This document shows, one piece after another, positions 16,517 through 36,459 of a DNA stretch of 64,000 bases (position 1 is the first letter of the stretch; each line of letters begins with the position of its first letter). Origin of the DNA: a virus. Below the pieces are notes generated by a model. It saw only the letters and a program-made list of their open reading frames with translations, made no database searches and was not told the origin of the DNA. Both the position numbers and the translations under genes were made by a program. Location: IMG/VR virus record IMGVR_UViG_3300043465_002420. One strand, 5' to 3'.

Positions 16517-16985
16517 GACTATCTACAACCTTTGTGGTCATTTTACATCTGTTTTTATCAGCATCTAAAAATTCGTCTAAATTTTTAACACTTATAAGCG
16601 ACCAATGAGGATCATCCAATGGAACATATTCTTTTTTTGTGTAATAAAATGATTCCATTGTATACCTATAAACTTTATTCTCAACCTCTTCATCGGTCAT
16701 ACCACCAATTAAATCTTCACAAACTTCTTTACAAATTTTAATCGCATCTTGGTCTGTTGCACATCCTAACTTTCTCATAACTTGAACGGCAGCAAGTGCT
16801 TTATCTTTTTGCAAAAGATCTATAATGTTTTTTTTCATCATACCATCAATGAAATCTGCCCTTGCCATAAAACGAGCCATAATCTGACCTCGCTTTGGAG
16901 CAAATCTCCTCACATCAAAAAAATACTGCTCAAAGTTTTTTTCGTCAATAATCAATTCTTCAGACATTTTTTTCCTCTTTTGCAT
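16491..16985 (-). CDS. hypothetical protein
   Basis: 164-aa ORF downstream of dnaE-C. Confidence 0.6.
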   Translation of the reverse strand: MQKRKKMSEELIIDEKNFEQYFFDVRRFAPKRGQIMARFMARADFIDGMMKKNIIDLLQKDKALAAVQVMRKLGCATDQDAIKICKEVCEDLIGGMTDEEVENKVYRYTMESFYYTKKEYVPLDDPHWSLISVKNLDEFLDADKNRCKMTTKVVDSLDEKKQNE

Positions 16986-19701
16986 AATTTGAAAACTGTT
17001 CTAAAATTTCTTCTTCAGATAAATATTTATCTTCTTCAACTTCAGCAGGTTTCATCAAATATACCCTATAATCAGTTTCCTTCGTTGGAAACTTATAGAC
17101 CCATCTTTGATTAGGCAATTTTTTATTTTGCTCTAATGTGTATGTTGGAAACCCTTTATCTGGTGGCTGTAATCTTAATCTAACTAAGTTACCTTGTTCT
17201 AATTCTGAACCCCATCTTTTAAGATCGTCTTCCCAAATGTTTATTTTATTTTTTTCTCCCAAAGCATCTTCTACCTCCAATTGACAATAAGTTGTTCCTT
17301 TTTTACTTTTACACATTTTTTTAACAACTATTTCTACTTCAACTGGACAAATAACACCAATGTTTTCTTTGAATGCTTCGAATGTGTAACCTTTAAAATC
17401 CTTGCTCTTTTCCAAATTATGAGTCCAAGCAAATCCATAATACTTCATTTCACAAGCTACAATGCTTTTAAGTTCCTTTTCAAAATTTGGATCAATTTCA
17501 TAATCATTAGGATTAAATGCTTCGATAGTAGGTAACAATAATTTTTTAGACTCTTCAAGTCTTTCGATGCTTTTTAAATTTCTAACCCAAAGCTTTTTTA
17601 ATTCCTTTAACCTATTGAACACTTTATTAGTCTTTGTGATTTTATAATATCTTGTTTTTTGAACTTCAATAAAATCTTCAGTTCCTTCAATTGGAACATA
17701 AGTAATTTCCAATTTAGGTTCACCCTGACCCTTTTCACATTCGAATTTTCTTTCTGATTCTACCATTTCATTTACATCGTATTTTTCCCACTCGTCACCA
17801 TCAAATGGATTAGCTCCATGAAAACTATTCAACAATCTTGTCTCGTCAGGAAAAAGCTCTTTAAATTCTTCTTCGTATTGCGACATACTAACAGCGAATC
17901 TTTTCTTTTTATCTTCTATCTTTCTCGCACATTCTTTGTAGTGTTCGTAAAATTTCCACAATGTGATTGGATCAGATTCATTAAAACACCTCAATCCAAT
18001 CAAGCATTTTATAACACTAGCATCTGTGCCAAACTTAAAAAGAAAATCTCCAAATCCATTATATGGTTGACCAGAAACAATTTTTTCCGCTGGTGCTTCT
18101 CCAACACCCTTTATATTTGACAAGCCATAATAAATAACATCATCTATAAGCTCAAAATTTTTCTTAGACTTATTGATGTCAATCTTGTGCATCTCTATGT
18201 TGTGTCTTTTTGCTTCCATTTTATAGTCTTTAATCTTTTCGCTTAATGTTTCACAACTTAAAACGGCAGCATAAAACTCATGAGGATAATGAGCCTTTAA
18301 ATATAATAGACGAGAAGATACATAAGTGTATGCTACGGAATGACTTAGGTTGAATCCGTATTCTGCGAATGATTTTATCTGATCGAATAAATTGATTGCT
18401 TCTTCTTCAGATATGTTAAGATTTTTTTGACCTTTCTCTATGAACATAATTTCATATTTTTTAAAAGCCTCCGCTTTCTTTTTTGAAATAGCCTTTCTAA
18501 CAATTTCACAATCTCTGAATGGTATTTCTCCAACAACATTCAAAATTTTCATAATTTGCTCTTGGAAAACCATAACTCCATAAGTTTTTCCAAGAATAGG
18601 TTCAACAAGAGGATGCAAACTATATTCTTCGTTGCCCTTCTTCCTCTCAATATATCTTTCGTGCATTTTCATGTTCAAAGGGCCAGGCCTATAAAGAGCA
18701 GTGTATGCAACCAAATCCTCAAATGAATCAACCCCACCAGACCTAACTAATTTTCTAATGCCTTCCGAATCAAATTGAAAAATACATTTTAAATCGCCTT
18801 CATTTGCCATCTCTAGAGCTTTAGAATCATTACGCCATTTGATGATATCTGTCCAATCAGATTGGTTTGGCATGGCACAAATACTATCAATTGACTTTCT
18901 TCTTTTTACCAATTCACAACATTTACTGATTTGCATCAAATTAGAAATTACAAGTAAATCAAACTTAACCAATCCTACTGGTTGTAAATCTTGACCATTA
19001 AGACCTTCAACCCATGCAGATGCTTGTGGATTGTCTTTTCTCTTAACCAATGGAACAAGATCGTGTAGTGGAATAGAACTTATAATCAAACCACCAGCAT
19101 GTTGGCCCATACCTCTATTTCTATTTATAAGTCTTTTGGCTGCGTTTGATACATCTGGATACTTTTCACAATACTCTTTCAATTTTGGATATTGTGATAG
19201 TGCCACATCCCAAGTCAATGGTTTTCCCTCATCATCTTTTGCTTCAAGCTCTTTTGTAAGTTCAAGTATTTCTCCTCTTGCCTCTCCATGGACTCTAGCC
19301 ATATCAATCAAAGCACTCTTCATGCCAAATGTTGTGTAATTGCCAATATTGCAAACATATTCTTCGCCAAATGTTTCAGAAGCCCACTTGTTTTTCAAAT
19401 AATCTCTAACTTCAGAAAGATAATCGACATCAATATCTGGCATATCTCCTTGAACAAACTTAGGATCTTTATTGATATCAAAATCATCAACTATGCCCAA
19501 AATGTATGGAACTAAGATATTATTTTCATTCTTGGGGAATTTTTTCTTTTCTTTAAATAAATTCAAAAAATATTCTGACTTTCCTTGAATGTCAATTTCT
19601 TTAATTTCCCACTCAAGTCTTTTTTTATGCTTTTCACATAATTGTCTTCTTTTAAAGATGTGCCATAAAAGCTGTTCGATTTTTTGAACTGTCGTTAACA
19701 T
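16960..19701 (-). CDS. dnaE: DNA polymerase III alpha subunit, C-terminal part (palm catalytic Asps, thumb, fingers, HhH, OB); no PHP domain
   Basis: MPDIDVDY, GQHAGG, LVKFDLL, IFQFDS.G, ALYRPGP, TYGVMVFQEQIM, YGFNLSHSVAY, LKAHYP.EFYAA, GLSNIKGVG. Confidence 0.95.
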   Translation of the reverse strand: MLTTVQKIEQLLWHIFKRRQLCEKHKKRLEWEIKEIDIQGKSEYFLNLFKEKKKFPKNENNILVPYILGIVDDFDINKDPKFVQGDMPDIDVDYLSEVRDYLKNKWASETFGEEYVCNIGNYTTFGMKSALIDMARVHGEARGEILELTKELEAKDDEGKPLTWDVALSQYPKLKEYCEKYPDVSNAAKRLINRNRGMGQHAGGLIISSIPLHDLVPLVKRKDNPQASAWVEGLNGQDLQPVGLVKFDLLVISNLMQISKCCELVKRRKSIDSICAMPNQSDWTDIIKWRNDSKALEMANEGDLKCIFQFDSEGIRKLVRSGGVDSFEDLVAYTALYRPGPLNMKMHERYIERKKGNEEYSLHPLVEPILGKTYGVMVFQEQIMKILNVVGEIPFRDCEIVRKAISKKKAEAFKKYEIMFIEKGQKNLNISEEEAINLFDQIKSFAEYGFNLSHSVAYTYVSSRLLYLKAHYPHEFYAAVLSCETLSEKIKDYKMEAKRHNIEMHKIDINKSKKNFELIDDVIYYGLSNIKGVGEAPAEKIVSGQPYNGFGDFLFKFGTDASVIKCLIGLRCFNESDPITLWKFYEHYKECARKIEDKKKRFAVSMSQYEEEFKELFPDETRLLNSFHGANPFDGDEWEKYDVNEMVESERKFECEKGQGEPKLEITYVPIEGTEDFIEVQKTRYYKITKTNKVFNRLKELKKLWVRNLKSIERLEESKKLLLPTIEAFNPNDYEIDPNFEKELKSIVACEMKYYGFAWTHNLEKSKDFKGYTFEAFKENIGVICPVEVEIVVKKMCKSKKGTTYCQLEVEDALGEKNKINIWEDDLKRWGSELEQGNLVRLRLQPPDKGFPTYTLEQNKKLPNQRWVYKFPTKETDYRVYLMKPAEVEEDKYLSEEEILEQFSNYAKEEKNV

Positions 19702-19724
19702 GTTTTCGCCTTAAAATGAAAATT

Positions 19725-19733
19725 ATTATATCA
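19725..19733 (-). promoter_or_regulatory. extended -10 sigma70-type promoter for dnaE-C
   Basis: TGATATAAT (TGnTATAAT) 24 nt upstream of the ATG at 19701. Confidence 0.45.
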
Positions 19734-19770
19734 CAATATACTACATATAGCACAACGCAAAAGGGGAAAA

Positions 19771-20142
19771 ATGAACAACGAAATTGAAGAAATATTAAAA
19801 TTATCTGGTGTATTTGTCGAACAAAAAACTGAAATTACTTTAGATGAGTTTGCTAAAAAAAGGCACGATGGTGCAGAAAAAATAGCCAATAATGCCAAGG
19901 AAAAAGGTGGTATAGCACTTCTTACATATAGTCACTTTATTGTAAAACTTCCATACTACAAGGAAGCTTCAAAAGGAAAATTTGATTTTAAAAAAGTAAA
20001 AAAAGAATATGAAAGCTTATGTTCTGAATTACATTCTTATATGAATAAAATTGAAAATATTGATCCAACAAAATTTCAAAAGCTTGTCGGGAAAATTGAA
20101 GTCTTAGGCGAATTGCTAATTAGATACAAAGACACAAAATGA
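19771..20142 (+). CDS. hypothetical protein
   Basis: 123-aa ORF, AAGGGG upstream. Confidence 0.6.
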   Translation: MNNEIEEILKLSGVFVEQKTEITLDEFAKKRHDGAEKIANNAKEKGGIALLTYSHFIVKLPYYKEASKGKFDFKKVKKEYESLCSELHSYMNKIENIDPTKFQKLVGKIEVLGELLIRYKDTK

Positions 20143-20204
20143 AAAATGGAATATCAAATTTAATTGATATTCCATATTATCTGCTTGATATTTAATCTAA
20201 ATGC

Positions 20205-20708
20205 TTATTTAGAAGTTGGCTTAGAAGGCTTTTCTTCAGTTGGCTTAGAAGGCTTTTCTTCAGTTGGCTTAGTTGGATTAACACTTGGAATTTTATCCAA
20301 CATTAATTTCTTGTTTGCATTTGTGCCTGAACTAGCAGGACAAGAAATATCTTCACATGCACGATGGTATCCGTCTTCGTAAGAAGCCAATCTTACATAC
20401 TCAACTTGATCCATACCACGATAATAACCGCTATGCCAAATCGCAGAAATATCATTGCTTTCTGGCTTAATATTATTCACTACACTAATGATACCTTCGA
20501 TCTTTCCTTGATTTTTAGCAAGCTCCATATTTTCATTTTTCACACTGTTGACATGACCATAAAGAATTTCATTAAATCCACTTTGTGTTAACAAATCTTT
20601 TTGCATCAACAAATCTTGAACGCTTTTCATGTTATCAATTCTGTATATTTGATAACCATTTGTAAGAACAGAACATGCTAAAATAGCATAAACAACATAA
20701 TTGCTCAT
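20205..20708 (-). CDS. membrane-anchored/secreted protein with PTEEKPSK repeats
   Basis: Hydrophobic N-terminus; AAGGAG upstream; 24-nt repeat at 20215-20272. Confidence 0.65.
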   Translation of the reverse strand: MSNYVVYAILACSVLTNGYQIYRIDNMKSVQDLLMQKDLLTQSGFNEILYGHVNSVKNENMELAKNQGKIEGIISVVNNIKPESNDISAIWHSGYYRGMDQVEYVRLASYEDGYHRACEDISCPASSGTNANKKLMLDKIPSVNPTKPTEEKPSKPTEEKPSKPTSK

Positions 20709-20865
20709 AATAACTCCTTAACCATATTTGAACCCTAAACAACAAGATATTAGACTAACAAATATCTTTGAAAAAATCAATAAGTAAAATTGAAATAATT
20801 TCAACTCATTTAAGCCTATATACAAACAGTCGTATTTTGCAAAAATTTATATTATGGAGATGATT

Positions 20866-21849
20866 ATGTCATTCAAGAGCTTTCAAGAATATTTAAACGA
20901 TACTGGTAAAATGATCGAAAAACCAGCAGTCAAAATAGTTGCTGGATATGAAGGAGAAACCCCAACTTCCCCAGAAAAAACAAAAAAAGATCCAAATGCT
21001 GGTGGGGCTAAAGATTCTAAATCTACCAACAAGCCATATAAAGCTGGTACTGATGCTAAAAATCCCAATAAAGCAGAAAAGGGATTTGCACATGAAGGAG
21101 ATTCAGATCTTAAGTATGAGCCAACCACAAATGTAAAAAAGAGCAACTATGGTGGCGATGAAGTTAAATCTTGGCTTGATTCTTCAAGCGTAACAGAATG
21201 GCTCAATAAAACTCGCAATCTTTCTGGTGCAAAATTTGTAAGTCAGATGCGAAATGAAACAATTGGAACTTCAATCGGGCAAATCAAAGAAACAGTAACT
21301 TTGTGCGAAAATAATTCCAAAAATATTCAACAACTTATTTTTGAATTAAAACGCCACAAATTATTAGGAAAATTTATTACAGAAGCTTGCAAACATGGAA
21401 CTGGTATCAAGGCGATCATAGCAGAAATCAAGAAAAATACTCTTTTTCAAAAAGCAATTAATGAAATGAGCTATATGTCTTCAGACAATGAAGATGATAT
21501 GTCGAATGATGAATACGAACCAGATATGTCAGATATGTCAAATGATGATAGTGACGAAGAAGAAAATGATATGTCAGATGAAGATGATATGTCAGATGAA
21601 GATGATATGTCAGATGAAGATGATATGTCAGATGAAGATGAAGATATGTCAGATGAAGATGAAGATATGTCAGATGAAGATGAAGATATGTCAGACGAAG
21701 ATGAAGATATGTCAGATGAAGATGAAGATATGTCAGATGATTCTCACAAAGATGATGATTCTGCATTATCCGATCCTTTTGGCAAAGGCCATGCTTCTCA
21801 CGCCCTTAGAAAAATGGGGCCACGACCAGAACCATCTGATGAATTTTAA
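20866..21849 (+). CDS. acidic-tailed protein with capsid-targeting-like N-terminus (possible head core/scaffold protein)
   Basis: GGAG 6 nt before MSFKSFQEYLND; long (D/E)DMSDE(DE) tail. Confidence 0.7.
   Translation: MSFKSFQEYLNDTGKMIEKPAVKIVAGYEGETPTSPEKTKKDPNAGGAKDSKSTNKPYKAGTDAKNPNKAEKGFAHEGDSDLKYEPTTNVKKSNYGGDEVKSWLDSSSVTEWLNKTRNLSGAKFVSQMRNETIGTSIGQIKETVTLCENNSKNIQQLIFELKRHKLLGKFITEACKHGTGIKAIIAEIKKNTLFQKAINEMSYMSSDNEDDMSNDEYEPDMSDMSNDDSDEEENDMSDEDDMSDEDDMSDEDDMSDEDEDMSDEDEDMSDEDEDMSDEDEDMSDEDEDMSDDSHKDDDSALSDPFGKGHASHALRKMGPRPEPSDEF
21568..21741. repeat. 15-nt and 21-nt coding tandem repeats (DMSDE / DEDMSDE)
   Basis: gatatgtcagatgaa core repeated about nine times with gat/gatgaa linkers. 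Confidence 0.9.
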
Positions 21850-21854
21850 CCAAC

Positions 21855-21880
21855 AAAAACCTTCTACTAAGAAGGTTTTT
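21855..21880 (+). terminator. intrinsic terminator
   Basis: aaaaaccttct-acta-agaaggttttt hairpin right after the stop at 21849. Confidence 0.7.
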
Positions 21881-21930
21881 GTATGTGAGGTCATCTGAGA
21901 AAATGCGAAAAAGATAAAATCTTAATATGC

Positions 21931-22584
21931 ATGCCAACATACCACTCCCCAATAGAATGGCTAGAAAGATCTACCATTTCTATAAAATCACAAACTTATA
22001 CAAATTTTGATTGTTATGTTGTGAAAGATGGATGTTGTGAATCTTGCACAATAGACACAACAAATAAAACATGTATTGAATGTGAAAACTGTAAATTAAC
22101 AAAAAAGTTTTTTAAAAAAATTGCAAAAAATGACAAAAGATTTAAATTCCATATTTTGCCAATTCATCTAAGTGGTGCTGGTTGGGGTCCTAGAAATTTT
22201 GCAATCATGAACACACATCATAATTATATAGCATATCTTGATGATGATAATTGGTACGAAAAAGATCATATAGAATCACTTTATAAAACAATTACTTCTG
22301 GTGATTATAACTTAGCCTACACTGGTACTAGATTACATGATTCTAATAAAAATATTATAGGAGAAAGAATTCACAATTCTATTCCAAAAGCTGGATATAT
22401 AGATACTTCTGAGATCATGCATACTAGATATCTAATAGATAAACATGGCGGATGGCGTTATGTGAAAAAATGCAATGATTGGGATTTAATATCAAGATGG
22501 ATTCCCGATGTGAAATGGAGTCACACCAACAAGGTAACACTTAATTTCTTTATAAGGGATGGATGCGGAATACACAGGAAATAA
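21931..22584 (+). CDS. GT2 glycosyltransferase
   Basis: MPTYH, SIKSQTY, PRNFAI, YIAYLDDDNWY, DWDL. Confidence 0.85.
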   Translation: MPTYHSPIEWLERSTISIKSQTYTNFDCYVVKDGCCESCTIDTTNKTCIECENCKLTKKFFKKIAKNDKRFKFHILPIHLSGAGWGPRNFAIMNTHHNYIAYLDDDNWYEKDHIESLYKTITSGDYNLAYTGTRLHDSNKNIIGERIHNSIPKAGYIDTSEIMHTRYLIDKHGGWRYVKKCNDWDLISRWIPDVKWSHTNKVTLNFFIRDGCGIHRK

Positions 22585-23843
22585 AACAGTTCGTCCAGAA
22601 GTGGAAAAACTTCACCGATTCCTCCACGCAAATTCCCTACGAATACAAGCCAATATGCAAAGATTTACTTTTGCACGATGAAGAAATCGTTGTCGAAACA
22701 ATAGACATACTGAAAAGAAACATATCATCTTGGGCAGAAAAAAATTCCGAAGCTTACGCAAACAAAAAAGACCTTACTTTTTTAGGTAAAAATGATCTCA
22801 CAGACAAAGACAAGTGGTATGTAAAATCCTTAGAAAATGAATCCATGCCAATGAAAAGTAGCGGAAGCACCACTGGTGAGGGATTCGAATACTTGCGATG
22901 GGAACCTTTCCTTTATTTCATCGAAGGAGAAAACCACTATGATCTGATTCTGGATGAATATGAAATACCACAGAATCCAGACATCATGTACTTCTTTAAT
23001 TCTTCGTTCGGAAGTGGCTCAAGACACATAAACAATACATCGAAAAGCAAAAACTTTATGGAACATCACGGAACAAAAAGAACCGCAATGGTTCATTATG
23101 CAAACACGAAACTACAAAAAGAAAAAGAAGAAGTGTTTCGGAAATACCTATTCAGATATTTAAATTTAAAAAAAATGGATGTAATTTTTGCCCCAGGCCC
23201 ACAAATAAAAAAAATATGCTCTTATATAAAAAAGGAAAACTATAAAGGTAAACTGTGCAACTTGTTGAGCAATAGCAATGAAAAAATTCTGGATGAAGAT
23301 GCTAAATTCCTTCTCGAAAAAAATTATGTGTCACATATATGCGACCACATGAGGTGTTGGGATGGAGGAGCTTCCTTCTTCACATGTAGAGATAAGAACT
23401 ATCACTTAATGGATAACCTTTCTTGGTGTGTCGAAAATGAGGAAAGGCTCATATCAACCGATTACTTCTCCTTGGCTTGTCCTTTTGTCAAATTCTGGAA
23501 TGGCGACAGGTGCAAGATAGGCGATAAATATCAGAGATGTTCGTGCGGAAGGTTGTACAGAGATTTTAAATTCTTGGAGAATCGACCATTTGCCATAAAA
23601 GGGCATTCGATCAACGAGTACAAAAAGAAGCTCACGGAAACTGGTCTTACAGAGATAAAACAAGTGAATTGCGGAATCGACTTCATAGAAATCGTGTCGA
23701 ACAAAGAAATAGATCCTATCAAAAAAAATGAAGTTGCCGAAATATTTAAGTCTCACAAATTGAAATTCAAAGTTGTTCCAGACCAATTGGCATCGCAAAA
23801 AATTCATAACAGAACTCCATCTGAAAAGGTGGAAACAAAATGA
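22563..23843 (+). CDS. PaaK/CapK/LuxE-like acyl-adenylate ligase (ANL superfamily)
   Basis: SSGSTTG P-loop; NGDRCKIG...CSCGR..LE.R C-terminal motif typical of phenylacetate-CoA ligase family. Confidence 0.65.
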   Translation: MRNTQEIKQFVQKWKNFTDSSTQIPYEYKPICKDLLLHDEEIVVETIDILKRNISSWAEKNSEAYANKKDLTFLGKNDLTDKDKWYVKSLENESMPMKSSGSTTGEGFEYLRWEPFLYFIEGENHYDLILDEYEIPQNPDIMYFFNSSFGSGSRHINNTSKSKNFMEHHGTKRTAMVHYANTKLQKEKEEVFRKYLFRYLNLKKMDVIFAPGPQIKKICSYIKKENYKGKLCNLLSNSNEKILDEDAKFLLEKNYVSHICDHMRCWDGGASFFTCRDKNYHLMDNLSWCVENEERLISTDYFSLACPFVKFWNGDRCKIGDKYQRCSCGRLYRDFKFLENRPFAIKGHSINEYKKKLTETGLTEIKQVNCGIDFIEIVSNKEIDPIKKNEVAEIFKSHKLKFKVVPDQLASQKIHNRTPSEKVETK

Positions 23844-26800
23844 TAGATCCAAAACTGGTGAAAAAATGGGATATAGTTTTCGCTCTACAAGAAAAGGGAT
23901 GTGGGTATTTCGCAACATATGAAGCAGTAGTCATTGTGCCACGACCTTGTACCGGAGGGTCAAGTGCTTATTGGACTCTTGCTTCTCCTTGCCCAGATGG
24001 TTGCACATCTTCTCCTCCTCCTCAATTGCCAACAAATCCTCCATGCGATCCTAATTACCCTGACAATGGAACGGAAAATGACATAATCGGGTGCTGCGAA
24101 GGTATAGTTTCAGTCGAATGCTCCGGCACTTGCTGTAAATGCGGTGGTGTAGAGTGTTTGACAACGGAGACATGCTGTGACGATGTTTGTGTGAACTTAC
24201 AAACAGATCGTGACCACTGTAATTCTTGTACCACCCCTTGCAATCCAGATCAAGACTGCTGTGATGGCGAATGCAAAAACATATACGAAGACAGCAATAA
24301 TTGTAATGGTTGCGGAAATGTTTGCCCTGAAGCTACACCAACTTGCTGCAATGGTGATTGCTGCACGACAGCGAATTGTTGTTTCGTTGATGACATCCTT
24401 ACTTGTATTGATGTAACAAACAATCATGATCATTGCGGAAGATGCGACAATCCTTGTGCAGCCGAAGAAACATGCTGTTCTGGTGAATGCGTCAACACAC
24501 AGACAGATAATGAGCATTGCGGATCATGTCCGAATGCTTGTCCTGTCGCATTCACATGCTGTTCTGGTGTATGCAAAGAATTATTTGGGGATGATCGTTT
24601 AAATTGTGGCGATTGTGGCAAAACTTGCGTTGTAGGAGAAATATGCAAAAACGGTGTTTGCAAAGACGCTTGTGCTGCGAACGACTGCGAGTTTACTTGG
24701 GTTGATCCTCCGGGTTGTTGTAGCCGTTATGTCTGTTCGACTGAAAATGAGTATGCGTTTTCTTCTTCATACACTTCAATTACAGATTGCTCTGTCGATA
24801 GCCCTCCAAATATACCTTGCGATGGAAGCCCAGAATCTACAGGTTATTTTTACCTTACATGGAGTCCAGAGCCGTGTTGTACTGGATCTTGTCAATCTTT
24901 TTGTCTAGAACCAACTTGCACTTGGTCAGGTCCAGAAAACTCTACTTGTGGAGAGGGTTGTGCTTGCCAATCATTTGAAGGTCAACCTTGTGCATGTGGA
25001 ACACTCAGAGACGATCCATGTATAAGAACAGTAGTACCTCCCGGACAATGGAATGCAACTGCGACATGTCCACAAGGATGCAACTGCCCCGGGAACGCCC
25101 CAATACAAAATGGAACAAATGGTCAAGTAGTCAGTTACGAATGCGTCAATTGCCTTGCTCCATGTGAAGCAGGAGAAAAATGCTGTTTCGGCACATGTAA
25201 AAACATACTGACAGATCCTCTTAATTGCGGAGATTGTGGAAACAATTGTGGCGATCAGATTTTGGGAAACAAATGCTGTAATGGGAAATGCGTAAACATA
25301 CTTACAGGGGATTTAAACTGCGGAGATTGCACAACTGTATGTCCATTTCCAGAAGTATGCTGCAATGGCGTATGCAAAAATCGTAACACTGACAATTACA
25401 ACTGCGGATCTTGCGGTTACGAGTGCCAGACTGGAATTGGGGAAACCTGCTGCAATGGGATTTGCGTAAACGAAAATACCGACAGAAACAACTGTGGCTC
25501 CTGCGGATTTACATGTCCCAACGCAGATCAGTGCATTGATGGAAACTGCGTTCCATGCGTTCCTCCATGTCTAGAAGCTGGTACGGCTTGCTGCAACAAT
25601 CAGTGCATCGACATATTGTCTGACGAGAGCAACTGCGGTGGTTGCAATATACCTTGTGCTGGCAAGTGCTGCGGTGGCATTTGCGTATTAGATTTGAACA
25701 CCATGTTTAACTGTGGTGATTGCGGAATAGAGTGTCCGCAATTGATCAACCAAATCAATCTGTGGCAGTGCTGTAACGGTCAATGCAAGAACCTAAAAAC
25801 TGATCCAGAAAACTGCGGATTTTGCGGAAATGTATGTCAAGAACCTCCGGGTGACACATTTACAGTTCCAAAATGTTTCTTGGGAAACTGTGCGGAACCA
25901 GAATGCGATTGTCAAGGATATGAAGCTGGAATGCCACCACAACCTGGGCCAGACGATGTGGCTTTCGTGGCTTCATGCGTTGGAAACACGGTAAGTTGTG
26001 ATGGATCTTGTTATTTCAATGCTGTAGGCGGAGGATGGGTTCTGTATGAAGAGCCGGGCGGAACTGGATTTTCTGGTACCTGCGGAAAAGAACCAGATTA
26101 CACATATTGCGTTGATGACAAATATGCATGTGTGGATGACAAATATGTTTGTGTCGGAGATATATATTATTGTGTAAAAAACATAGAAGGACAAGATATG
26201 CCAACTTATTGTATACCTGCTGCATCGTTTAACGCTGAAACACAAGCACTAATCGGATCTTACATCGGAGCAGAAAACTGTGCCGCTGGTTGTAGCGGTG
26301 ATGGAAGCGAGTGCGATCCTGCTTGTGGCAATGGATTAACCTGTTGTGATACACAATGCGTAGACACGCAAACTGACAGTGCCAATTGCGGTGGTTGTGG
26401 TGGCGGTCCTTGTGCTGCTGGCGAGGCTTGCAAAGATGGAGTTTGCACAGGATGTACGCCTCCATGTGCCGATGGTGAATCGTGCTGCGAAGGTGGAACG
26501 ACATGCTGCGAAACTTGCTGTGCTGACGCATGTTGTCCAACTGGTCAATCATGTGTTGATGGAGTGTGTGCCACATGCGAACCACCTTGTACTGCTGGAC
26601 AAACCTGCTGTGGAGGATCATGTTGTGATGCTGGAATAATATGCTGTGACCAAACATGTTGTGCTGAAGGTGAGTTCTGCGAAAACGGAAGTTGTGCAAC
26701 ATGCAACCCAGTGTGCTATCCAGACGAGACATGCTGCGATGCAACATGCGTTAGGTGGCAATGTGGAGAATGCCCAAATGCATGTGCTTCTGCTGAAATA

Positions 26801-28204
26801 GTTTGTTGCGGTTTGCCGGGTCAAGAAGTATGTTGTCCTGAAGGTCAAACTTGTGTTGAGAATGCGTGTTACGGATGTACACCTCCTTGTTCCGAAAGTC
26901 AGGATTGTTGCGATGAGGTATGCACAGAAGTTGGAACAGACACAAATTGTTCGGGTTGTGGTGACGCTTGTGGAGAAGGAACAAAATGCTGCGATAAAGT
27001 GTGTACTGCTACTGGAACTGACACAAACTGTTCGGATTGTGGCGATGCTTGTGCCGAAGGTCAGAGTTGTTGTGATGATGTATGCACAGAAATTGGAACC
27101 GACACAAATTGTTCGGGTTGTGGTGATGCTTGCACAGACGGAAAATGTTGTGAGGGAGTGTGCAAAGAAACACAAACCGACAATGAAAATTGTGGCGATT
27201 GCGAAAATGTATGTAATACAGCAGAAGGTGAAAAATGTGTTGCTGGAGTATGTGTTACTTGTGATCCACCTTGTACTGGACTTGATGTATGTTGTGATTT
27301 AACATGCTGCAAAGTTTGTTGCGGTCCAGAAGGTAGTAAGACATGCTGTGCTGAAGGAAAAATCTGTTTAAATGGTCAGTGTAGCGGTTGTGAACCAGAA
27401 TGTACAGAACCTGGACAAACTTGTTGCACCAATCCTAATCAGCCTAATCCTACAGAGGAGGAACCAAGTCCACCAATAGGACAATGTTGCCCTGCTGGAG
27501 TTCTTTGTTGTGCTGGTGGATGCTGCCCTAATGAAAATTTTTACTGTTGTGATAACAAAGTATGTTGCTTCAATGATCGTGCTTGTTGCAATGGAGTTTG
27601 CTGTGCTGAAGGTAAATTCTGCAATAATGGCGTGTGTGCTGATTGTAATCCAACATGCTACTCTGATGAAAAATGTTGTCCTGGAACTACTGGTAGCGGG
27701 GAATGTATTAGGTGGCAATGTGGCGATTGCCCAAATGCATGTACACGATTCCAAACATGCACCAATAATGTTTGTTGCGATGCAGTAACGGAGGGTCCAC
27801 TATCAGGGCAAACTGGTGTAGGTTGCGGAACTGTTTGTTGCGACCCCGGTATCACATGTTGCCGAGACATTTGTTGTTTAGACCCTGACGAAGAATGTTG
27901 CGATGGCTTTTGCGTAAATACCAATTCTATCGACAATAATAATTGCGGAGGTTGTGGCCAGCCATGTGTCGCTCCAGCAACTTGTTGTAATGGTTCGTGT
28001 AGAACAGTTTTTGCAGACACTTCTAGTTGCGGAAGTTGCGGGAATACATGTTCACTTGGAATGCTTTGCTGCCCTGATAACGGTGGCTGCGTTTACCCAT
28101 CGTATTTAAATTGTGGTAGTTGCGGAAATGAATGTGAAGTAGGACAATCATGTTGCCCAGATGAACAAGGCGGTCACACATGCTTGGCTCAAGGTTCATG
28201 TTAA
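23840..28204 (+). CDS. 1454-aa cysteine-rich repeat protein (Stig1-like / MXAN_6577-like repeats)
   Basis: Many C(V/K)xxxTDxxNCGxCGxxC and CC repeats; ATGA overlap with the upstream ligase; terminator follows. Confidence 0.85.
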   Translation: MIDPKLVKKWDIVFALQEKGCGYFATYEAVVIVPRPCTGGSSAYWTLASPCPDGCTSSPPPQLPTNPPCDPNYPDNGTENDIIGCCEGIVSVECSGTCCKCGGVECLTTETCCDDVCVNLQTDRDHCNSCTTPCNPDQDCCDGECKNIYEDSNNCNGCGNVCPEATPTCCNGDCCTTANCCFVDDILTCIDVTNNHDHCGRCDNPCAAEETCCSGECVNTQTDNEHCGSCPNACPVAFTCCSGVCKELFGDDRLNCGDCGKTCVVGEICKNGVCKDACAANDCEFTWVDPPGCCSRYVCSTENEYAFSSSYTSITDCSVDSPPNIPCDGSPESTGYFYLTWSPEPCCTGSCQSFCLEPTCTWSGPENSTCGEGCACQSFEGQPCACGTLRDDPCIRTVVPPGQWNATATCPQGCNCPGNAPIQNGTNGQVVSYECVNCLAPCEAGEKCCFGTCKNILTDPLNCGDCGNNCGDQILGNKCCNGKCVNILTGDLNCGDCTTVCPFPEVCCNGVCKNRNTDNYNCGSCGYECQTGIGETCCNGICVNENTDRNNCGSCGFTCPNADQCIDGNCVPCVPPCLEAGTACCNNQCIDILSDESNCGGCNIPCAGKCCGGICVLDLNTMFNCGDCGIECPQLINQINLWQCCNGQCKNLKTDPENCGFCGNVCQEPPGDTFTVPKCFLGNCAEPECDCQGYEAGMPPQPGPDDVAFVASCVGNTVSCDGSCYFNAVGGGWVLYEEPGGTGFSGTCGKEPDYTYCVDDKYACVDDKYVCVGDIYYCVKNIEGQDMPTYCIPAASFNAETQALIGSYIGAENCAAGCSGDGSECDPACGNGLTCCDTQCVDTQTDSANCGGCGGGPCAAGEACKDGVCTGCTPPCADGESCCEGGTTCCETCCADACCPTGQSCVDGVCATCEPPCTAGQTCCGGSCCDAGIICCDQTCCAEGEFCENGSCATCNPVCYPDETCCDATCVRWQCGECPNACASAEIVCCGLPGQEVCCPEGQTCVENACYGCTPPCSESQDCCDEVCTEVGTDTNCSGCGDACGEGTKCCDKVCTATGTDTNCSDCGDACAEGQSCCDDVCTEIGTDTNCSGCGDACTDGKCCEGVCKETQTDNENCGDCENVCNTAEGEKCVAGVCVTCDPPCTGLDVCCDLTCCKVCCGPEGSKTCCAEGKICLNGQCSGCEPECTEPGQTCCTNPNQPNPTEEEPSPPIGQCCPAGVLCCAGGCCPNENFYCCDNKVCCFNDRACCNGVCCAEGKFCNNGVCADCNPTCYSDEKCCPGTTGSGECIRWQCGDCPNACTRFQTCTNNVCCDAVTEGPLSGQTGVGCGTVCCDPGITCCRDICCLDPDEECCDGFCVNTNSIDNNNCGGCGQPCVAPATCCNGSCRTVFADTSSCGSCGNTCSLGMLCCPDNGGCVYPSYLNCGSCGNECEVGQSCCPDEQGGHTCLAQGSC

Positions 28205-28237
28205 AAAAACAGGCTTGATTTTCAAGCCTGTTTTTTT
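28203..28237. terminator. bidirectional intrinsic terminator
   Basis: aaaaaaacaggcttga-ttt-tcaagcctgttttttt between convergent genes. Confidence 0.85.
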
Positions 28238-28256
28238 CTTTAATTTAGAATTTTTT

Positions 28257-28544
28257 CTATTCTTTGTAGGCTACCCATCGGTTACGAACAAATAAAAGAT
28301 TTGCAAAAAAACCGCAAAAGGCAGAAATGAGATTTTCCGCAAACGGAACATATAGTTCGCCTACCGGATTAAGCACGAATGAAATTCCCAATGAAAACCA
28401 AAAACTGCTGCATTCATGACAAAGCATTGGAACATTGACATATGGTATCTTGGCTACCAAGTTTCTAAATGGTCTTGCAACATCGGTGTCGGACCAAGCA
28501 TAAGCGACACCAAGACATGTGACTAAATAAATCAAAAATATCAT
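28257..28544 (-). CDS. small membrane protein, DUF1360-like
   Basis: PFR...LCHECSSFW with flanking TM helices; ATGA overlap fixes the start at 28544. Confidence 0.55.
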   Translation of the reverse strand: MIFLIYLVTCLGVAYAWSDTDVARPFRNLVAKIPYVNVPMLCHECSSFWFSLGISFVLNPVGELYVPFAENLISAFCGFFANLLFVRNRWVAYKE

Positions 28545-28960
28545 AGGAAATAGACCCACATATAATCAAATTCTCGAACAACGGAGAAACTTCTAAATGT
28601 TTTTCCAGTAATAGTCTTGTTGAAATTAGCCCAAGCCTCATCACCAAGCTGAACCTTGAAGACTTTGCCTACAATTGAATTATTGACTCTTTTTAGCTTA
28701 ATAGCTTCGAGTTCCTTGACTATCGCAGCCTTGTCCTTGTAATACTTTTCCAAGATATTTGGATCAGCAGTTACTTTATCGGAAAAGAACTTGCCAACCT
28801 TGCCCCTGCATGAACAGTTTGGGTTGGTCTTTAATGTTGTTAGGTCGGCAAGAATATCTGGGAATTCCGCCTTTAATTCAGCGAATAAAGTTTCATCCTT
28901 GATGATCATATAAATAAGATCTGGCATCGTACCTAGATCTACAGTGATTGTAGTTTCCAT
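28541..28960 (-). CDS. hypothetical protein
   Basis: 139-aa ORF with NPNCSCRGK. Confidence 0.6.
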   Translation of the reverse strand: METTITVDLGTMPDLIYMIIKDETLFAELKAEFPDILADLTTLKTNPNCSCRGKVGKFFSDKVTADPNILEKYYKDKAAIVKELEAIKLKRVNNSIVGKVFKVQLGDEAWANFNKTITGKTFRSFSVVREFDYMWVYFL

Positions 28961-29011
28961 AAAATTAATATAGTTTTATATTTTTATTTTTTTGATTTTT
29001 AAAAATATTTT

Positions 29012-30374
29012 TTATAAATCAAAACAAATAGATCTACCGCCTCTAGCCTCAGACATGAATCGACTAAACAAAAGACCTTCAAATACTGGATCAACATCAG
29101 TAATTCCAAGACAATAGCAAATCAAAGAACCACAAGCACTTCCCCTGCCTGGCCCCACAGCTTGAGTTCCATCACCACCTATATTCTCTTTGCACCACTT
29201 TCTTGCCTCATCAGTCATCATTTTTTGAATAAGAAAATATGTACTAAATCCTTTTCGAGTAATAAGACTTAATTCTTCAATTATTCTGTCTTTATATTCT
29301 TTGGTCTTAGGCAAGTTTCTCTGCTTGAATCCTTGTATGACTAAATCTTTAAGCTTTTCGTCACAATCAGGCAAAATTGGTAATTTTAAACTTCTATCAA
29401 GTTCAACTCCTTTTGCCATTCTGCAAATCTCTACTGTATTCTTTTTAGCTTCACAAAAAATTTCATATGGAATAACATCACTATAATCTTTAGCCCATTT
29501 TTCGTTAAGTTCTTCCTCTGACTTCATCCATAAGTTGGCATCTTGCAATTCAAAAAAGTCTTTCATGGCATCTTCTTTCATTGCCTTTTGAATTTCTTGA
29601 ATTGTTCTATTTGTCTGTACCATTAACATAAGTCTTTGAAAGTGACTATCTTCCTTTCGACAATAATGACAATCATTTGTAAGAATTATTTTTAATTTAT
29701 ACTTTTCATAAGCCTTGATGATAAATGCATCATAAGGCTTTTGTTTGACAAAATCTAAAAGCATAATTTCAAGAAAATAATTATCTCTACCAAACATCTC
29801 AATGTATCTTTCAATCATTTGAAATGCAGCTTCTTCACCACCAGAATCAAATGCTCTACCAACTTCGCTGTTATAGCAACAACTAGTAAAAAACAAACCT
29901 TCTTTATGTTTCTCAAGTTGTTCGTAATTTACTCTTGGCTTTCTATAAAATCCTTTTGTCCATCCCCAAGATGTAAGTCTTACTAGGTTTTTATAACCTA
30001 TTTCACTATGTGCAATCGCAAGAAGATGTGGACTAGCTCTCAATTCCTTTAATTCTATTTCGTTTAAGTTTTTAGAGAAATTTTGCATGTCTTGCAAAGA
30101 ATCACTTGATGGCTGTAACCTATTAACATATAGTTCTGCTGCGAATATAGGAGAAAGTTTGTTTTTACCAAACTTATCACAAATTTTCTCACAAGCTTTT
30201 ATTTGTCTTGGAACAGCACCCAACATGCCATGATCACTAATAGTTAAAAAGTTTTGATTGATTTGGGTAGCTCTGAGTGAATATTCCTCACAAGTACCAA
30301 ACCCATCTAAAACAGAAAAATCGGAATAACTAATGAAGGTGGAGATGTTCGAAACCGACAATCTCCACCTTCAT
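29012..30374 (-). CDS. dnaE: DNA polymerase III alpha subunit, N-terminal part (PHP + start of palm); reading frame interrupted by UAG and a 7-nt gap after codon 14
   Basis: HLHLH | SDFSVLDG, TISDHG, AAELY, PHLLAIA, TSCC, TNDCHY, LWMKSEEE, GPGRGSACGSL, FSRFMSEAR; SD AAGGAG before ATG 30374. Confidence 0.9.
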
Positions 30375-30375
30375 T
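30332..30375 (-). promoter_or_regulatory. perfect 15-bp hairpin covering the dnaE-N start codon and ending at the internal UAG (candidate recoding element)
   Basis: aatgaaggtggagat (30332-30346) / atctccaccttcatt (30361-30375), 14-nt loop. Confidence 0.8.
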
Positions 30376-30414
30376 GGAACTCCTTTCATAAATGTCATTG
30401 TTCAATCCTTTTGT

Positions 30415-31103: not shown

Positions 31104-34100
31104 TTACCTTTTTGCTCGTATTCTTACATTTAAAGGATCATTGTCAAAACACTCAAAAACGATTTCGCTCCCATCATGACCTTTGGTCGATAGAAACACA
31201 TCGTTTTGCCAAATAAACCTTAAAGAACAAAGAACATCACGAACATAAGGCTCGTATAGTGTTCTTCCCTCATAATTATGCTCCAACATAAGATAACCTT
31301 TGCCACGATAATTTGGCTCAGTCAATCTAATATCTGGCAATCCACCATTAACATGCCTTGCCATAAGGAGTTTTTTTATTTTTTTATATTCATGACTTTC
31401 CAAGATTGTATCACCACTTGGATATTTTTTATATTCAAAATATTCTTGCTCTCTGCAAAAATCTTCAGTAAAAAATTCATGTATCAAAGTTAGATCATCG
31501 TAATACTTTCTAACTTCAAATATTTTTTCTTTTCCTAATTTTGCATTTGTATCCCAATTTTCTTTTTTGGTTGAATTTGTGCAATCATCCCATTCAGTTC
31601 CAAATTGGCCTTTATCCCATCTTTTTCTTATGTCCGAAAGAAGATTATAGCCTAGCTTATATGGATTAGTGCTATATTTTCCTCCAAGAACACCCATCTT
31701 ATGTGCAGCATATTCTATGATTCCATCATCATGTGTTTTCTGGCCCAATGAAACATAACCCTGTTCTGCCATAATGACATGGTCGGTCATACTATTATGA
31801 TTCATAAATCCACAAGCCGAATATCGATGACTTGTTTCTACTGTAATGTCATACACTGTATCTTTTCCAATTTTTTCGATAGAAATAATTTCATCTTCAA
31901 GTTTTTGATCAATAAACCATTTATGATTGTCAATATACTTCTTTAACTTTTGCTGTTTTCTAGATAATCCAAAACCTATTTGCTCATAATACTTTACCGC
32001 TTCCTGTCCGGTTATGCGTACATGCCAACAAGAATCTTTTTGTTTGCGTCTTGTTGATAATATGCAAAAATTCAACAAAACATTTTGTATTTGTCTGGAA
32101 AGAACTTCGCTTGCGGTGGAAAGAATAACACCAGCATCCCCCGCATAACCATCACAATCAAAATACGATCTTACAAAAGAAGCGATAACACTCTTGGGCG
32201 ATTTAAGAATAATTTCTGGTATTTGCTTAATCCTAGCACAGACTCCAGTTTTCATTCCCAAATAAACAAGTAGTTCTTCAAGTTCTTTTGAAGTTACAGA
32301 AATTCTATATCGACCATTTTTAGATGTGTCATCCCAACGAGATTTACAATCTATATTAAATAATTTCTTTGTAAGACGAATATAATTATCAGCTTGATCT
32401 TTATCTCCAGTTGTTAAGCCAAGAGTTCTCTTGCTTTTAGATATATGACCATCTCCAATCATATATCCAACAAATGAAGCAAATTCTTCATCCATAGAAA
32501 AAGGTAAAGATATACATTTTCTTTTATTTCTCATGCATGTCATAGACTGATCATCATATTGCTTGAGCAATTTGTCTAAATTGTCATTTTTTTCTTCACC
32601 TTTATAATGATATTTTCTATAAACGACTTGAGACATAGTCGCTGATGCTTTTTTACAGATTTGCTTCAATTCTATCCTTTTATTGGGCAATTTATAATCG
32701 ATTTTTTGATATTTTTTCGTCCAAATATTTGAAAACGATATTTTAACTTTTTCTCCTACATTCATTTTATCAAGACGAACCCAATCATTATCACCCATAA
32801 CTCTATGATTATTTGAACCCTCAAAAACATATCCTCTTCTAGTTTCAATCCTATAAACATCACGATTTTCAAAAGTGAACCAATTTGTCACATTTCTAGA
32901 TTTTTCACCATCATAAACCATAACAGGCAACTTTTTATCAACAATTTCACCTAATGTCAAAATGCCCATATTTGTAGATACAAGAGAATCTCTTCGTCCG
33001 CAAGCCCACCCCTCGTTTAATACCTTGGTTTGTCTCTGTGGGAAAAAATAAATTGATTCCTCATAGATCATAGACATAATATCTTGCTGCCATGGCTTCA
33101 ATGGAGCATTATCACGCAAGAATCCAAAAACATCTTTAACTGGTTCAATAAAAAATCCAAGCTCTTCTGCCAAATCTTTATCTTTAACCTTTTCGTTTTC
33201 TTTATCTTTAAAATCTTTGGTGTTGATATAAGAATCCATATAAAGTCTATCATTGCCAACTTTTAGTCGCCTTGGAAAACGATAATTTTTTTTATCAATA
33301 ATGTTTTTATCTTTAATTACTTTTTGATGCCAAGCTGATGCACCATCAATTAAATTGTCGATGCGAAGCAAATAATCAAGAAATTCAGTAACCTTTTCTT
33401 TACCCCATCTAGCCATATATTTTCTTATACGACTCGCATGATTCGCCATGTTATTCAACATATTTGTGTCAGTGGCAGAAAAATGAATATTATTTTTAAA
33501 GAAATCATTATGACCAGTAGCGTGAGCGATAACTGTCAAATGATCCAATAGAGTATTGCTATCTAAGCAATAGATGTAGCAAGGTGATGTATTATGGGTA
33601 ATCAATCCATATGCAATAAAATCATGAGAATCATGATCCAATGCAATATCAACAGTTTCGATCTCATCTCCATCAACAACATGCTCAACAACAAATAAAG
33701 GATTTGAAATAATATCTTTAATTTCATTTGGAACACTTAATCCTTGATTTTCTGCTCTTTGTACAAATGAAGAAAAAGAATTAATCCCAACTTTTTGTTT
33801 CTCGAACATTTTAATTGAATAACCAAGACTATGGTTGTTATATGTTGTGATTCCTACACTTTTTGCCCACATAATCAATTGTCGTTGAATGTAAGGCAAC
33901 TCCATTCCAGAACTACGACAAAATTTTCTATCAAGTAATTTTTTAAGTAATTCTTGCTTATAGTTAAGCACAAAACCTATTCTATTGTAAAATTTATTTT
34001 CAGCCCAAATTCCCTTAATTTTAACAACATTAATATATTTTTGATCACCTTTTTTACCCTTGCCATTTTTCAATGTTTTTAAATTAGAAAGAATTCCCAT

Positions 34101-35213
34101 TTCCGAAAGCATAATCTGAACATCATCTGCCAATTTCTTATTATAACAACTAAAACCAACATGGTCAGCTACATAGCCATCAGTATCGAACAAACCACGA
34201 ATAAAAGCACATCTATAGGCAGGAGGAGACTTCCAAATAATATCTGGAATTATTTTTTCCTTAAATGTTTTACCTTTCTTTAAACCAATCGAATTAACAA
34301 AATCAACTGCGTTTTTTGAGCATAATGTTACATTGAAACAATTTGGTTTTTCGTAAATCTCTGCAACAACTCCAAATACCTTTTTAAATAAATCTACAAC
34401 ATGTTCTGCATATGTCCTGTGTTTTTTACCAACAGCAACGGTTAACATATTTTCAGCAGACTTTACTCCTATCGACCCATCTCCAACCAAAATTCCAAGA
34501 AGTTCCGCCAATTCTATCGTAATATGATTCGGTGGATAAATTTCTTTAATACAATGCCTAATGTTGGGCCTTGTTGATTCAAAAACTTGTTCGGATGACC
34601 AATCAATTCTTGGTGCATCCCAATTACTTTCATATGAATCAGTTCCTACAAAAATATCACCAGATACAACATCCGATGCTTTTTTCCAGATTAAACCATT
34701 ATTAGAAAGAACACGCCATTTGTGATTTGGCGTACATACTAATGTTTGGCCATCTTTCAAACAAATTTTCTTAGTTTTAGAAGCGTTTTGTCTCTTTGTC
34801 GCAACAACATTCCTAGTTTCATTACCAACAATAACTTGATCGCCTACCTTCACATCTCCAGCTATAATTGTACCACGCTTAGTCAAAACTGGAGCATTAA
34901 GTTCACAGCAATTGATTACCATTTCATATATCTTATGCATTTGATTTTCATATCCACGCTGCAATTCTTCATATTGCATGCCAAACGACCAATGTGGATA
35001 TCGTACTGGAAAACCACCATAAGCTGCTACTTCAGAGATTTCATCGTAGGTAAGAAGTTGCACTACAGTTGGATAAAAGTCTAAACCCCAATCTCTACAA
35101 ACATTCAAAATTATTTGAGCATGTTCTTTTAATTGTTTTGGAAGTTGAACACCAGGAATAGTGTTATCGCCAATAAGAAGAGAAGAGCCATGCATAAACT
35201 TGTTAGAAGACAT
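31104..35213 (-). CDS. spoVR: SpoVR/YcgB family protein with two inteins
   Basis: GLDFYP, YGGFPVRYPHWSFG, YEMVIN|TSPC, AHATGHNDFFKNN, TKVLNEGWA|S, NPYKLG, LPDI; exteins rejoin to the SpoVR consensus. Confidence 0.92.
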   Translation of the reverse strand: MSSNKFMHGSSLLIGDNTIPGVQLPKQLKEHAQIILNVCRDWGLDFYPTVVQLLTYDEISEVAAYGGFPVRYPHWSFGMQYEELQRGYENQMHKIYEMVINCCELNAPVLTKRGTIIAGDVKVGDQVIVGNETRNVVATKRQNASKTKKICLKDGQTLVCTPNHKWRVLSNNGLIWKKASDVVSGDIFVGTDSYESNWDAPRIDWSSEQVFESTRPNIRHCIKEIYPPNHITIELAELLGILVGDGSIGVKSAENMLTVAVGKKHRTYAEHVVDLFKKVFGVVAEIYEKPNCFNVTLCSKNAVDFVNSIGLKKGKTFKEKIIPDIIWKSPPAYRCAFIRGLFDTDGYVADHVGFSCYNKKLADDVQIMLSEMGILSNLKTLKNGKGKKGDQKYINVVKIKGIWAENKFYNRIGFVLNYKQELLKKLLDRKFCRSSGMELPYIQRQLIMWAKSVGITTYNNHSLGYSIKMFEKQKVGINSFSSFVQRAENQGLSVPNEIKDIISNPLFVVEHVVDGDEIETVDIALDHDSHDFIAYGLITHNTSPCYIYCLDSNTLLDHLTVIAHATGHNDFFKNNIHFSATDTNMLNNMANHASRIRKYMARWGKEKVTEFLDYLLRIDNLIDGASAWHQKVIKDKNIIDKKNYRFPRRLKVGNDRLYMDSYINTKDFKDKENEKVKDKDLAEELGFFIEPVKDVFGFLRDNAPLKPWQQDIMSMIYEESIYFFPQRQTKVLNEGWACGRRDSLVSTNMGILTLGEIVDKKLPVMVYDGEKSRNVTNWFTFENRDVYRIETRRGYVFEGSNNHRVMGDNDWVRLDKMNVGEKVKISFSNIWTKKYQKIDYKLPNKRIELKQICKKASATMSQVVYRKYHYKGEEKNDNLDKLLKQYDDQSMTCMRNKRKCISLPFSMDEEFASFVGYMIGDGHISKSKRTLGLTTGDKDQADNYIRLTKKLFNIDCKSRWDDTSKNGRYRISVTSKELEELLVYLGMKTGVCARIKQIPEIILKSPKSVIASFVRSYFDCDGYAGDAGVILSTASEVLSRQIQNVLLNFCILSTRRKQKDSCWHVRITGQEAVKYYEQIGFGLSRKQQKLKKYIDNHKWFIDQKLEDEIISIEKIGKDTVYDITVETSHRYSACGFMNHNSMTDHVIMAEQGYVSLGQKTHDDGIIEYAAHKMGVLGGKYSTNPYKLGYNLLSDIRKRWDKGQFGTEWDDCTNSTKKENWDTNAKLGKEKIFEVRKYYDDLTLIHEFFTEDFCREQEYFEYKKYPSGDTILESHEYKKIKKLLMARHVNGGLPDIRLTEPNYRGKGYLMLEHNYEGRTLYEPYVRDVLCSLRFIWQNDVFLSTKGHDGSEIVFECFDNDPLNVRIRAKR
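31794..33002 (-). mobile_element. intein 2 (403 aa) with LAGLIDADG homing endonuclease
   Basis: Starts CGRRDSLVSTNMG; FEGSNNHRV; FVGYMIGDGH and FVRSYFDCDG; ends VYDITVE...MNHN followed by +1 Ser. Confidence 0.9.
33591..34910 (-). mobile_element. intein 1 (440 aa) with LAGLIDADG homing endonuclease
   Basis: Starts CCELNAPVLTKRG; block B LVCTPNHKW; LLGILVGDGS and FIRGLFDTDG; ends GLITHN followed by +1 Thr. Confidence 0.92.
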
Positions 35214-36423: not shown

Positions 36424-36459
36424 ATTTTAACAACCTCTTTACAAAAATTATTTGACATA

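Follow-up and report, generated by a model that had tools for sequence, protein, structure and literature searches.

A candidate two-chain DnaE encoded by two distant, intein-free phage genes with a duplicated junction

The 64,000-nt stretch of DNA analysed here (the window) was taken from the IMG/VR virus record IMGVR_UViG_3300043465_002420. This record is 165 kb long, has a GC content of about 30% and is 34% complete according to CheckV, implying a full genome of several hundred kb. We found that the minus strand of the window encodes the domains of DnaE, the alpha subunit of DNA polymerase III (Pol III), in two separate open reading frames (ORFs), dnaE-N and dnaE-C. dnaE-N (29012-30361, minus strand; 449 aa) contains a PHP domain at residues 13-200 (PF02811, E = 2.4e-29) followed by positions 2-98 of the 260-position Pfam profile PF07733. 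The PHP metal-ligand positions D19, H44, E76, H112, C161/162, D230 and H232 are conserved, and the PHP HxH pair is encoded only in a frame upstream of the main ORF. The GS motif of the Pol-beta-like palm, GPGRGS (29138-29155, minus strand; residues 403-408), which in DnaE binds the triphosphate of the dNTP, was followed by FSRFMSEAR (29042-29068, minus strand; residues 432-440), in which R434 and R440 are the equivalents of E. coli R390 and R396. The chain then ends with GGRSICFDL and a TAA stop codon. dnaE-C (16960-19701, minus strand; 913 aa) comprises the Asp triad, thumb, fingers, HhH, an inserted domain and a C-terminal OB fold. PF07733 positions 100-259 were matched at its residues 86-250, together with the finger domain and HHH_6 (PF17657 and PF14579), and MPDIDVDY (residues 87-94) and KFDLL (residues 246-250) place all three catalytic Asp residues, D89, D91 and D248, in this chain. 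The set of palm residues of a C-family polymerase is complete but spread over two chains, with GRGS, R434 and R440 in dnaE-N and D89, D91 and D248 in dnaE-C.

To locate the seam, both products were compared with solved structures using phmmer. dnaE-N aligned to residues 82-396 of E. coli alpha, the last aligned residue being R396, and dnaE-C aligned from its residue 62 to residue 368 onward, D89 and D91 corresponding to D401 and D403. The seam lies between the equivalents of R396 and D401 and divides the GS and Arg elements that bind the dNTP from the metal-binding DxD strand. The enzyme is not encoded as a single polypeptide, as the two ORFs are 9.3 kb apart and a stop codon, a start codon, terminators and opposite-strand genes lie between them. 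No further PF07733 match was found in the 34% of the genome covered by the 165-kb record, and Pfam detected no intein or Hint domain in either half. An original prediction, made from the letters of the window, had claimed that dnaE-N carries PHP, GRGS and FSRF...EAR and stops before the Asp strand, that dnaE-C carries MPDIDVD and KFDLL, and that neither end of the break bears an intein; ORF and Pfam analyses confirmed all three claims.

The same prediction had proposed that dnaE-C begins with a degenerate repeat of the preceding segment, and HHalign, tblastn, phmmer and a multiple alignment all agreed with it. The N-terminal extension of dnaE-C (residues 1-84; 19450-19701, minus strand) is a degenerate paralogous copy of dnaE-N residues ~333-440 without the beta1-GRGS segment. 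The profile of the dnaE-N tail matched that of the dnaE-C extension with a probability of 87.5% (E = 3.6e-6) in HHalign, and in tblastn dnaE-C residues 16-85 and dnaE-N residues ~346-440 fell on one stretch of an unsplit relative. When 17 split pairs were aligned with the DnaE protein of LR756511.1, dnaE-C residues ~4-84 matched dnaE-N residues ~333-430 with a deletion of about 20 residues comprising beta1 and GPGRGS, and no Arg equivalent to R390 or R396 was found in the dnaE-C copy. Pairwise BLASTP of the overlap segments alone was not significant (E = 0.14) and is insufficient by itself; the duplication is established because the profile comparison and the third-party alignments support it. 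LR756511.1 (595 kb, uncultured phage) encodes an unsplit DnaE of 1179 aa with about 50% identity to each half and an unchanged domain order. dnaE-N residues 16-440 and dnaE-C residues 16-612 map to overlapping, in-frame coordinates of this ORF (tblastn), which is a single chain without the duplication and supplies the ancestral junction FSRFLSKFRKDYPDVDVDF.

The overlap runs in both directions, a feature absent from the original prediction. Unsplit enzymes have AR(K)DYPDVDVDF where, in the N halves of split enzymes, ARGG(R/K)S(I/L)xLEF or ARGGKQMKLRF is found, often followed by KNIDPLP; ARGG(K/R)xMKLRF and RSIVLEF were also found, and the tail in the window is shortened to SICFDL. The tail GGRSICFDL (29015-29041, minus strand) is a degenerate, dead copy of the PDxDxDF catalytic strand from which the Asp residues have been lost. 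In the dnaE-C extension, R28, W31, E32, E35, N58, N60, N61 and L68 are conserved in at least 90% of 25 sequences. Mean pairwise identity was 51-54% over residues 23-84 and 27% over residues 1-22, compared with 76% in the palm, 40% over residues 600-740 and 52% over residues 741-913. With this degree of conservation, the extension is not decaying.

To examine whether the split recurs, 53 related IMG/VR loci were surveyed, of which 25 had enough downstream sequence. In all 25, dnaE-C lay downstream of dnaE-N on the same strand at a distance of 0.97-9.3 kb, and the intervening genes largely differed. The layout was repeated on another contig of this metagenome (L003; 86-97% identical), where the gap measures 9327 bp, compared with 9311 bp here. 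The 9.3-kb spacing given in the original prediction is therefore correct for this strain but particular to it, since the halves are 1-9.3 kb apart in relatives and about 13 kb apart in one related record. In each of five larger related records (39-69% complete), PF07733 matched two pieces and no more, the break again falling at profile position 98/100. A beta clamp (PF02768) was found in none of these five records and DnaQ-like exonucleases in two of them, results that carry little information at such completeness. In a large protein database, 849 N-half-like proteins were detected; the best 120 were 66-100% identical and about 400-490 aa long, and were longer only when they contained an intein. 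The best 120 C-half matches were 54-97% identical and all lacked PHP. Split-half proteins were encoded on contigs of up to 602 kb. The same seam ended at least 27 of the 150 best representatives of 50%-identity clusters, about 80 of which were unsplit. The nearest unsplit relatives were about 50-57% identical, and among GenBank phage records none exceeded about 32% identity except the unsplit LR756511.1.

The elements on either side of the seam were highly conserved. GPGRGS, invariant in the 25 relatives, and FSRF..R, likewise invariant, lie in region 401-443 of dnaE-N, which was 85% pairwise identical, the highest value of the chain, and split forms of only 31-39% identity still kept GPGRGS. 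Very divergent split N halves (P0271 and P0287) were found on contigs of about 4.5 kb that end before any C half. In dnaE-C, PD.D.D and KFD were invariant, and GRGS and the Arg pair were missing from its copy in every lineage. Inteins in relatives interrupted the halves themselves (GPGRG|S and SPIFA|C in the N half, several sites in the C half), and none was found at the break; GPGRG|S is a typical active-site position for intein insertion. The recurrence of the seam in 25 of 25 loci and five larger records answers the breakpoint survey that had been proposed, and these results support a genuine and ancient split that involves no intein and is maintained by purifying selection. The architecture, which the original prediction had treated for one phage, is widespread.

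The 5' end of dnaE-N has an unusual structure. The original prediction had placed the start codon at ATG 30374. This codon is out of frame with the main ORF, which can be reached from it only if a 7-nt gap is skipped. From this ATG, preceded at 5 nt by the Shine-Dalgarno sequence AAAGGAG, a mini-frame (30333-30374, minus strand; ATG..CAT) encodes MKVEIVGFEHLHLH, which contains the PHP HxH ligands, and runs one frame off the main ORF into a TAG codon. Within the PHP motif, the His codon is separated from the Ser codon by the stop-containing gap TAGTTAT (30326-30332, minus strand), after which the main ORF resumes at SDFSVLDG. A stable RNA hairpin (30330-30376, minus strand; -32.7 kcal/mol, z = -6.65) pairs the start-codon region with the HLHLH codons in a stem of 15-16 bp, so that the start codon is sequestered and the gap lies at the foot of the hairpin. 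A stop-containing gap of 5, 6, 7 or 8 nt was present at exactly the same spot in 25 related loci. The hairpin was found in all gap-bearing loci with compensatory changes between lineages, and 18 loci had neither gap nor hairpin. Because the gap lengths vary and include an in-frame 6-nt case, we favour translational bypass over a fixed frameshift. The conservation of the gap with a covarying hairpin, and of the upstream frame at the amino-acid level, argues that dnaE-N is under unusual expression control rather than decaying. Non-coding inserts of other kinds were observed within the first 20 dnaE-N codons of relatives, namely a hairpin insert of about 40 nt after HSD/HTD (L010, L016 and L023), a long structured insert before LDG (L034-L036 and L050) and TAAC.. 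after SVL (L038, L044 and L047); these may be bypass elements or small introns.

The genes between the halves were then analysed. Downstream of dnaE-N on the same strand are two small ORFs of 139 and 100 aa (28257-28960, minus strand) without family matches, followed by a bidirectional intrinsic terminator with a 16-bp stem (28203-28237, both strands) that closes both the dnaE-N unit and an opposite-strand block. A 167-aa ORF (20146-20708, minus strand) has its own terminator at 20175-20146, and a 123-aa ORF (19771-20142, plus strand) lies directly upstream of dnaE-C and is divergent from it, the intergenic region being 69 nt. This divergent ORF rules out read-through into dnaE-C from the upstream minus-strand genes. 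The original prediction had assigned dnaE-C its own extended -10 promoter element. TGaTATAAT (19733-19725) and an AAGG ribosome-binding site are indeed present before ATG 19701 (19707-19733, minus strand), but the former is a consensus match only, and a sigma-70 promoter scan of 16.5-31 kb gave results at chance level (59 sites compared with 50 ± 8 in shuffled sequences). Because of the two terminators and the intervening opposite-strand genes, the arrangement supports transcription of the two halves as separate units. Separate regulation of the halves, which had also been proposed, is a possibility.

When the gap ORFs of the 25 loci were clustered, a single gene family occurred in every dnaE gap. 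Its member here is a 331-aa acidic protein (20854-21849, plus strand) that is conserved in its N-terminal region, ends in a long tail of D/E-rich repeats and is predicted to be largely disordered. Members are usually antisense to dnaE, and this protein had no informative match in Pfam, PHROG or Atlas. The remaining gap genes (21931-28204, plus strand) are strain-specific cargo, consisting of a GT2 glycosyltransferase (217 aa), an unknown protein (426 aa) and a 1454-aa Cys-rich protein (23840-28204, plus strand) with ten Stig1-like repeats and a GC content of 45%, compared with about 30% elsewhere; its counterpart in L003 has 1438 aa. A mobile element was sought as the cause of the split, but the gap ORFs of the window had no endonuclease or transposase matches in Pfam or PHROGs. 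HNH, GIY-YIG and LAGLIDADG domains were likewise absent from the gap ORFs of the window in these searches. Among Rfam models, neither introns nor any other RNA family scored above threshold in the interval or next to the halves. Directly upstream of dnaE-N is a trio encoding PrkA kinase, a DUF444 (YeaH-like) protein and SpoVR (31104-38532, minus strand). The SpoVR-like protein (31104-35213, minus strand) bears a LAGLIDADG intein at ~31794-32951, and L003 lacks a 1.2-kb segment exactly at this intein, which appears to be polymorphic between strains. The window also contains one tRNA gene (55538-55610, minus strand; Rfam, 66.8 bits).

Structures of the single chains were predicted with AlphaFold2 (AF2). 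The dnaE-C model matched 5fku, 2hnh and 4iqj, among the Pol III alpha structures of E. coli, Taq and M. tuberculosis, with Z of about 20, and residues 768-887 matched OB folds with Z of about 9. The PHP domain, the dnaE-C extension, the thumb-fingers region and the OB fold were well modelled, the extension forming a confident helical bundle with a predicted local distance difference test score (pLDDT) of 80-91. In contrast to these regions, dnaE-N residues 393-449 and dnaE-C residues 82-125 and 194-246 had pLDDT below 50. These low-scoring pieces are those that would meet in a composite palm, and in this respect the models are weakly consistent with a two-chain enzyme. Structural alignment gave no placement of the extension relative to the palm, as the rows reaching residue 1 (5lew and 7pu7) had root-mean-square deviations of 20-23 Å.

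Taken together, the sequence comparisons suggest that dnaE-N and dnaE-C probably form a two-chain DnaE with a composite active site that arose by partial duplication and complementary loss. The original prediction had stated that the two chains must assemble non-covalently into one active site. Because the catalytic motifs are divided complementarily, such assembly is the most economical explanation, but we infer the binding itself, the active site shared by two chains and the sequence of steps in its evolution. The duplicated helices, which the original prediction had named as the interface, may play that role. We propose that the ancestor was a single-chain huge-phage DnaE, in which a partial tandem duplication of about 110 codons would have copied the helix-beta1-GS loop-helix-DxD strand portion of the palm. 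The upstream copy would have kept GPGRGS and the two Arg residues, lost the Asp residues and gained a stop codon, and the downstream copy would have lost beta1 and GRGS, kept PDIDVD and gained its own start, cargo genes accumulating between the halves later. In the present-day enzyme, dnaE-N would supply the PHP proofreading-type domain and the triphosphate-binding half of the palm, and dnaE-C the metal-binding half together with thumb, fingers, HhH and OB. The separately transcribed chains would dock non-covalently and rebuild one Pol-beta-like active site. We tentatively extend this proposal to fold complementation, in which each chain might keep a 'dummy' copy of its partner's element, the dead Asp strand in dnaE-N and the GS-less helices in dnaE-C, as a placeholder or docking surface that is exchanged on assembly. 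Production of dnaE-N might then be gated by bypass at the fifth to fifteenth codons, making polymerase assembly a regulated step; we regard this extension as possible, and as clearly less probable than the two-chain enzyme itself.

Several observations weigh against a two-chain enzyme. The same helices are copied in both chains, and a single active site would have to accommodate both copies. The genomes covered are only 34-69% complete, and strictly speaking an intact dnaE could lie elsewhere in them. Each of the related records G001-G005 encodes one short family A polymerase (PolA) of about 445 aa, which could be the main replicase. Finally, the pattern of low confidence in the AF2 models comes from shallow alignments of 25 sequences and from single chains without an unsplit control.

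The alternative that survives best is that dnaE-C is self-sufficient, its GS loop being replaced by N58-x-N60-N61, and that dnaE-N works as a subunit of its own, a PHP exonuclease or pyrophosphatase that uses what is left of its palm for docking alone. This reading would account for the conservation of specific residues in the extension and for its confidently predicted helical bundle, dnaE-C retains every domain for holding DNA, and separate proofreading subunits are normal for Pol III, epsilon being one. However, GPGRGS and both Arg residues are invariant in dnaE-N down to 31% identity and form its most conserved stretch, inteins target GRG|S of the N half, and the dnaE-C copy has no equivalents of R390 and R396. 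We therefore consider a self-sufficient dnaE-C unlikely.

Three further explanations fare worse. Some unrecognised process, for example RNA trans-splicing or a non-canonical form of protein trans-splicing, could link the two chains covalently or unite their RNAs, given that inteins and intron-like insertions are common in the dnaE family here. Against this, Pfam detected no Hint or intein domain in either half, no Rfam family reached threshold around them, dnaE-C has its own start and ribosome-binding site, and the duplicated overlap would be redundant in a joined product, which makes joining very improbable. It is equally hard to credit that one or both halves are decaying remnants and that replication is carried out by a phage PolA or by host Pol III. 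The recoding event needed at the 5' end of dnaE-N and the PolA gene in related genomes would fit such decay, but neither ORF is disrupted across hundreds of lineages, residue conservation in the catalytic segments is 65-85%, and the 5' gap is itself conserved with its covarying hairpin and with an upstream frame kept at the amino-acid level. An assembly artefact, in which a chimeric join broke a single dnaE, might be suspected from a metagenome-assembled contig with a higher-GC segment in the gap, but it can be dismissed, as an independent contig of an 86-97% identical strain has the same layout, the same break occurs in 25 further loci and five larger records, and a duplicated overlap with proper stop and start codons cannot arise from a mis-join.

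If two chains do rebuild one active site, the pair would be a natural and widespread C-family replicase cut through its nucleotidyltransferase core. It would then offer a permissive seam for engineering split polymerases and show clearly how a gene can undergo fission when part of it is duplicated and the copies degenerate in complementary ways. It would also raise the question of why huge phages keep the dNTP-binding and proofreading module and the metal- and DNA-binding module as separately expressed subunits. Annotation pipelines label the halves as 'DNA polymerase III alpha' fragments or hypothetical proteins, and recognition of the pair keeps them from being taken for pseudogenes.

Split replicative polymerases are known from other systems. 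In cyanobacteria such as Synechocystis and Nostoc, DnaE is likewise encoded by two distant genes, whose products carry the intein halves IntN and IntC and are joined by protein trans-splicing into one functional alpha subunit; the break is located far downstream in the polymerase. In the phage pair, by contrast, no intein is present at the break, the GS motif and the DxD strand lie on either side of it, and palm-derived sequence takes the place of IntC at the start of the C half. Intein-free splits are known for family B polymerases, as in PolB1/PolB2 of Methanothermobacter and gp43A/43B of some T4-like phages. A split PolB has also been described in phiKZ-like jumbo phages such as MIJ3 (PMC6892783). 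These enzymes are replicative polymerases consisting of two polypeptides that work non-covalently, and they differ from the DnaE described here in polymerase family and fold. We know of no report of a duplicated, complementarily degenerated junction in split family B polymerases. In Aeromonas phage Aeh1, the essential enzyme gene nrdA is split by mobE and functions as two chains. Unlike that case, the dnaE gap of the window contains no detected homing endonuclease, and its universal gene encodes an acidic, disordered protein.

The closest parallel comes from group 2.2 jumbo phages, whose 'minimal' Pol III alpha consists of an NTP-binding protein and a Mg2+/template-binding protein encoded far apart (Iyer et al. 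2021, Viruses 13:63, PMC7824862). Its authors predicted that the two proteins reconstitute one enzyme (PMC7824862). By their description, the cut lies at topologically the same seam as here, with the NTP-binding subdomain of the nucleotidyltransferase core on one side and the Mg2+-binding subdomain on the other (PMC7824862). That version is described as minimal and as lacking PHP or other Pol III domains, whereas the enzyme encoded here is full-length, with PHP, palm, thumb, fingers, HhH and OB. The minimal version is also described as accompanying a family B polymerase, whereas none (PF00136) was found in our record or in the five related records, six partial genomes that are 34-69% complete. 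The two-way duplicated junction found here is not mentioned in the text of PMC7824862, and full-text literature searches retrieved no account of a split DnaE that is full-length and has its junction duplicated. The seam and the principle of the split were thus already known from Iyer et al. 2021, and the pair described here differs from that system in being a full-length DnaE and in its two-way duplicated junction.

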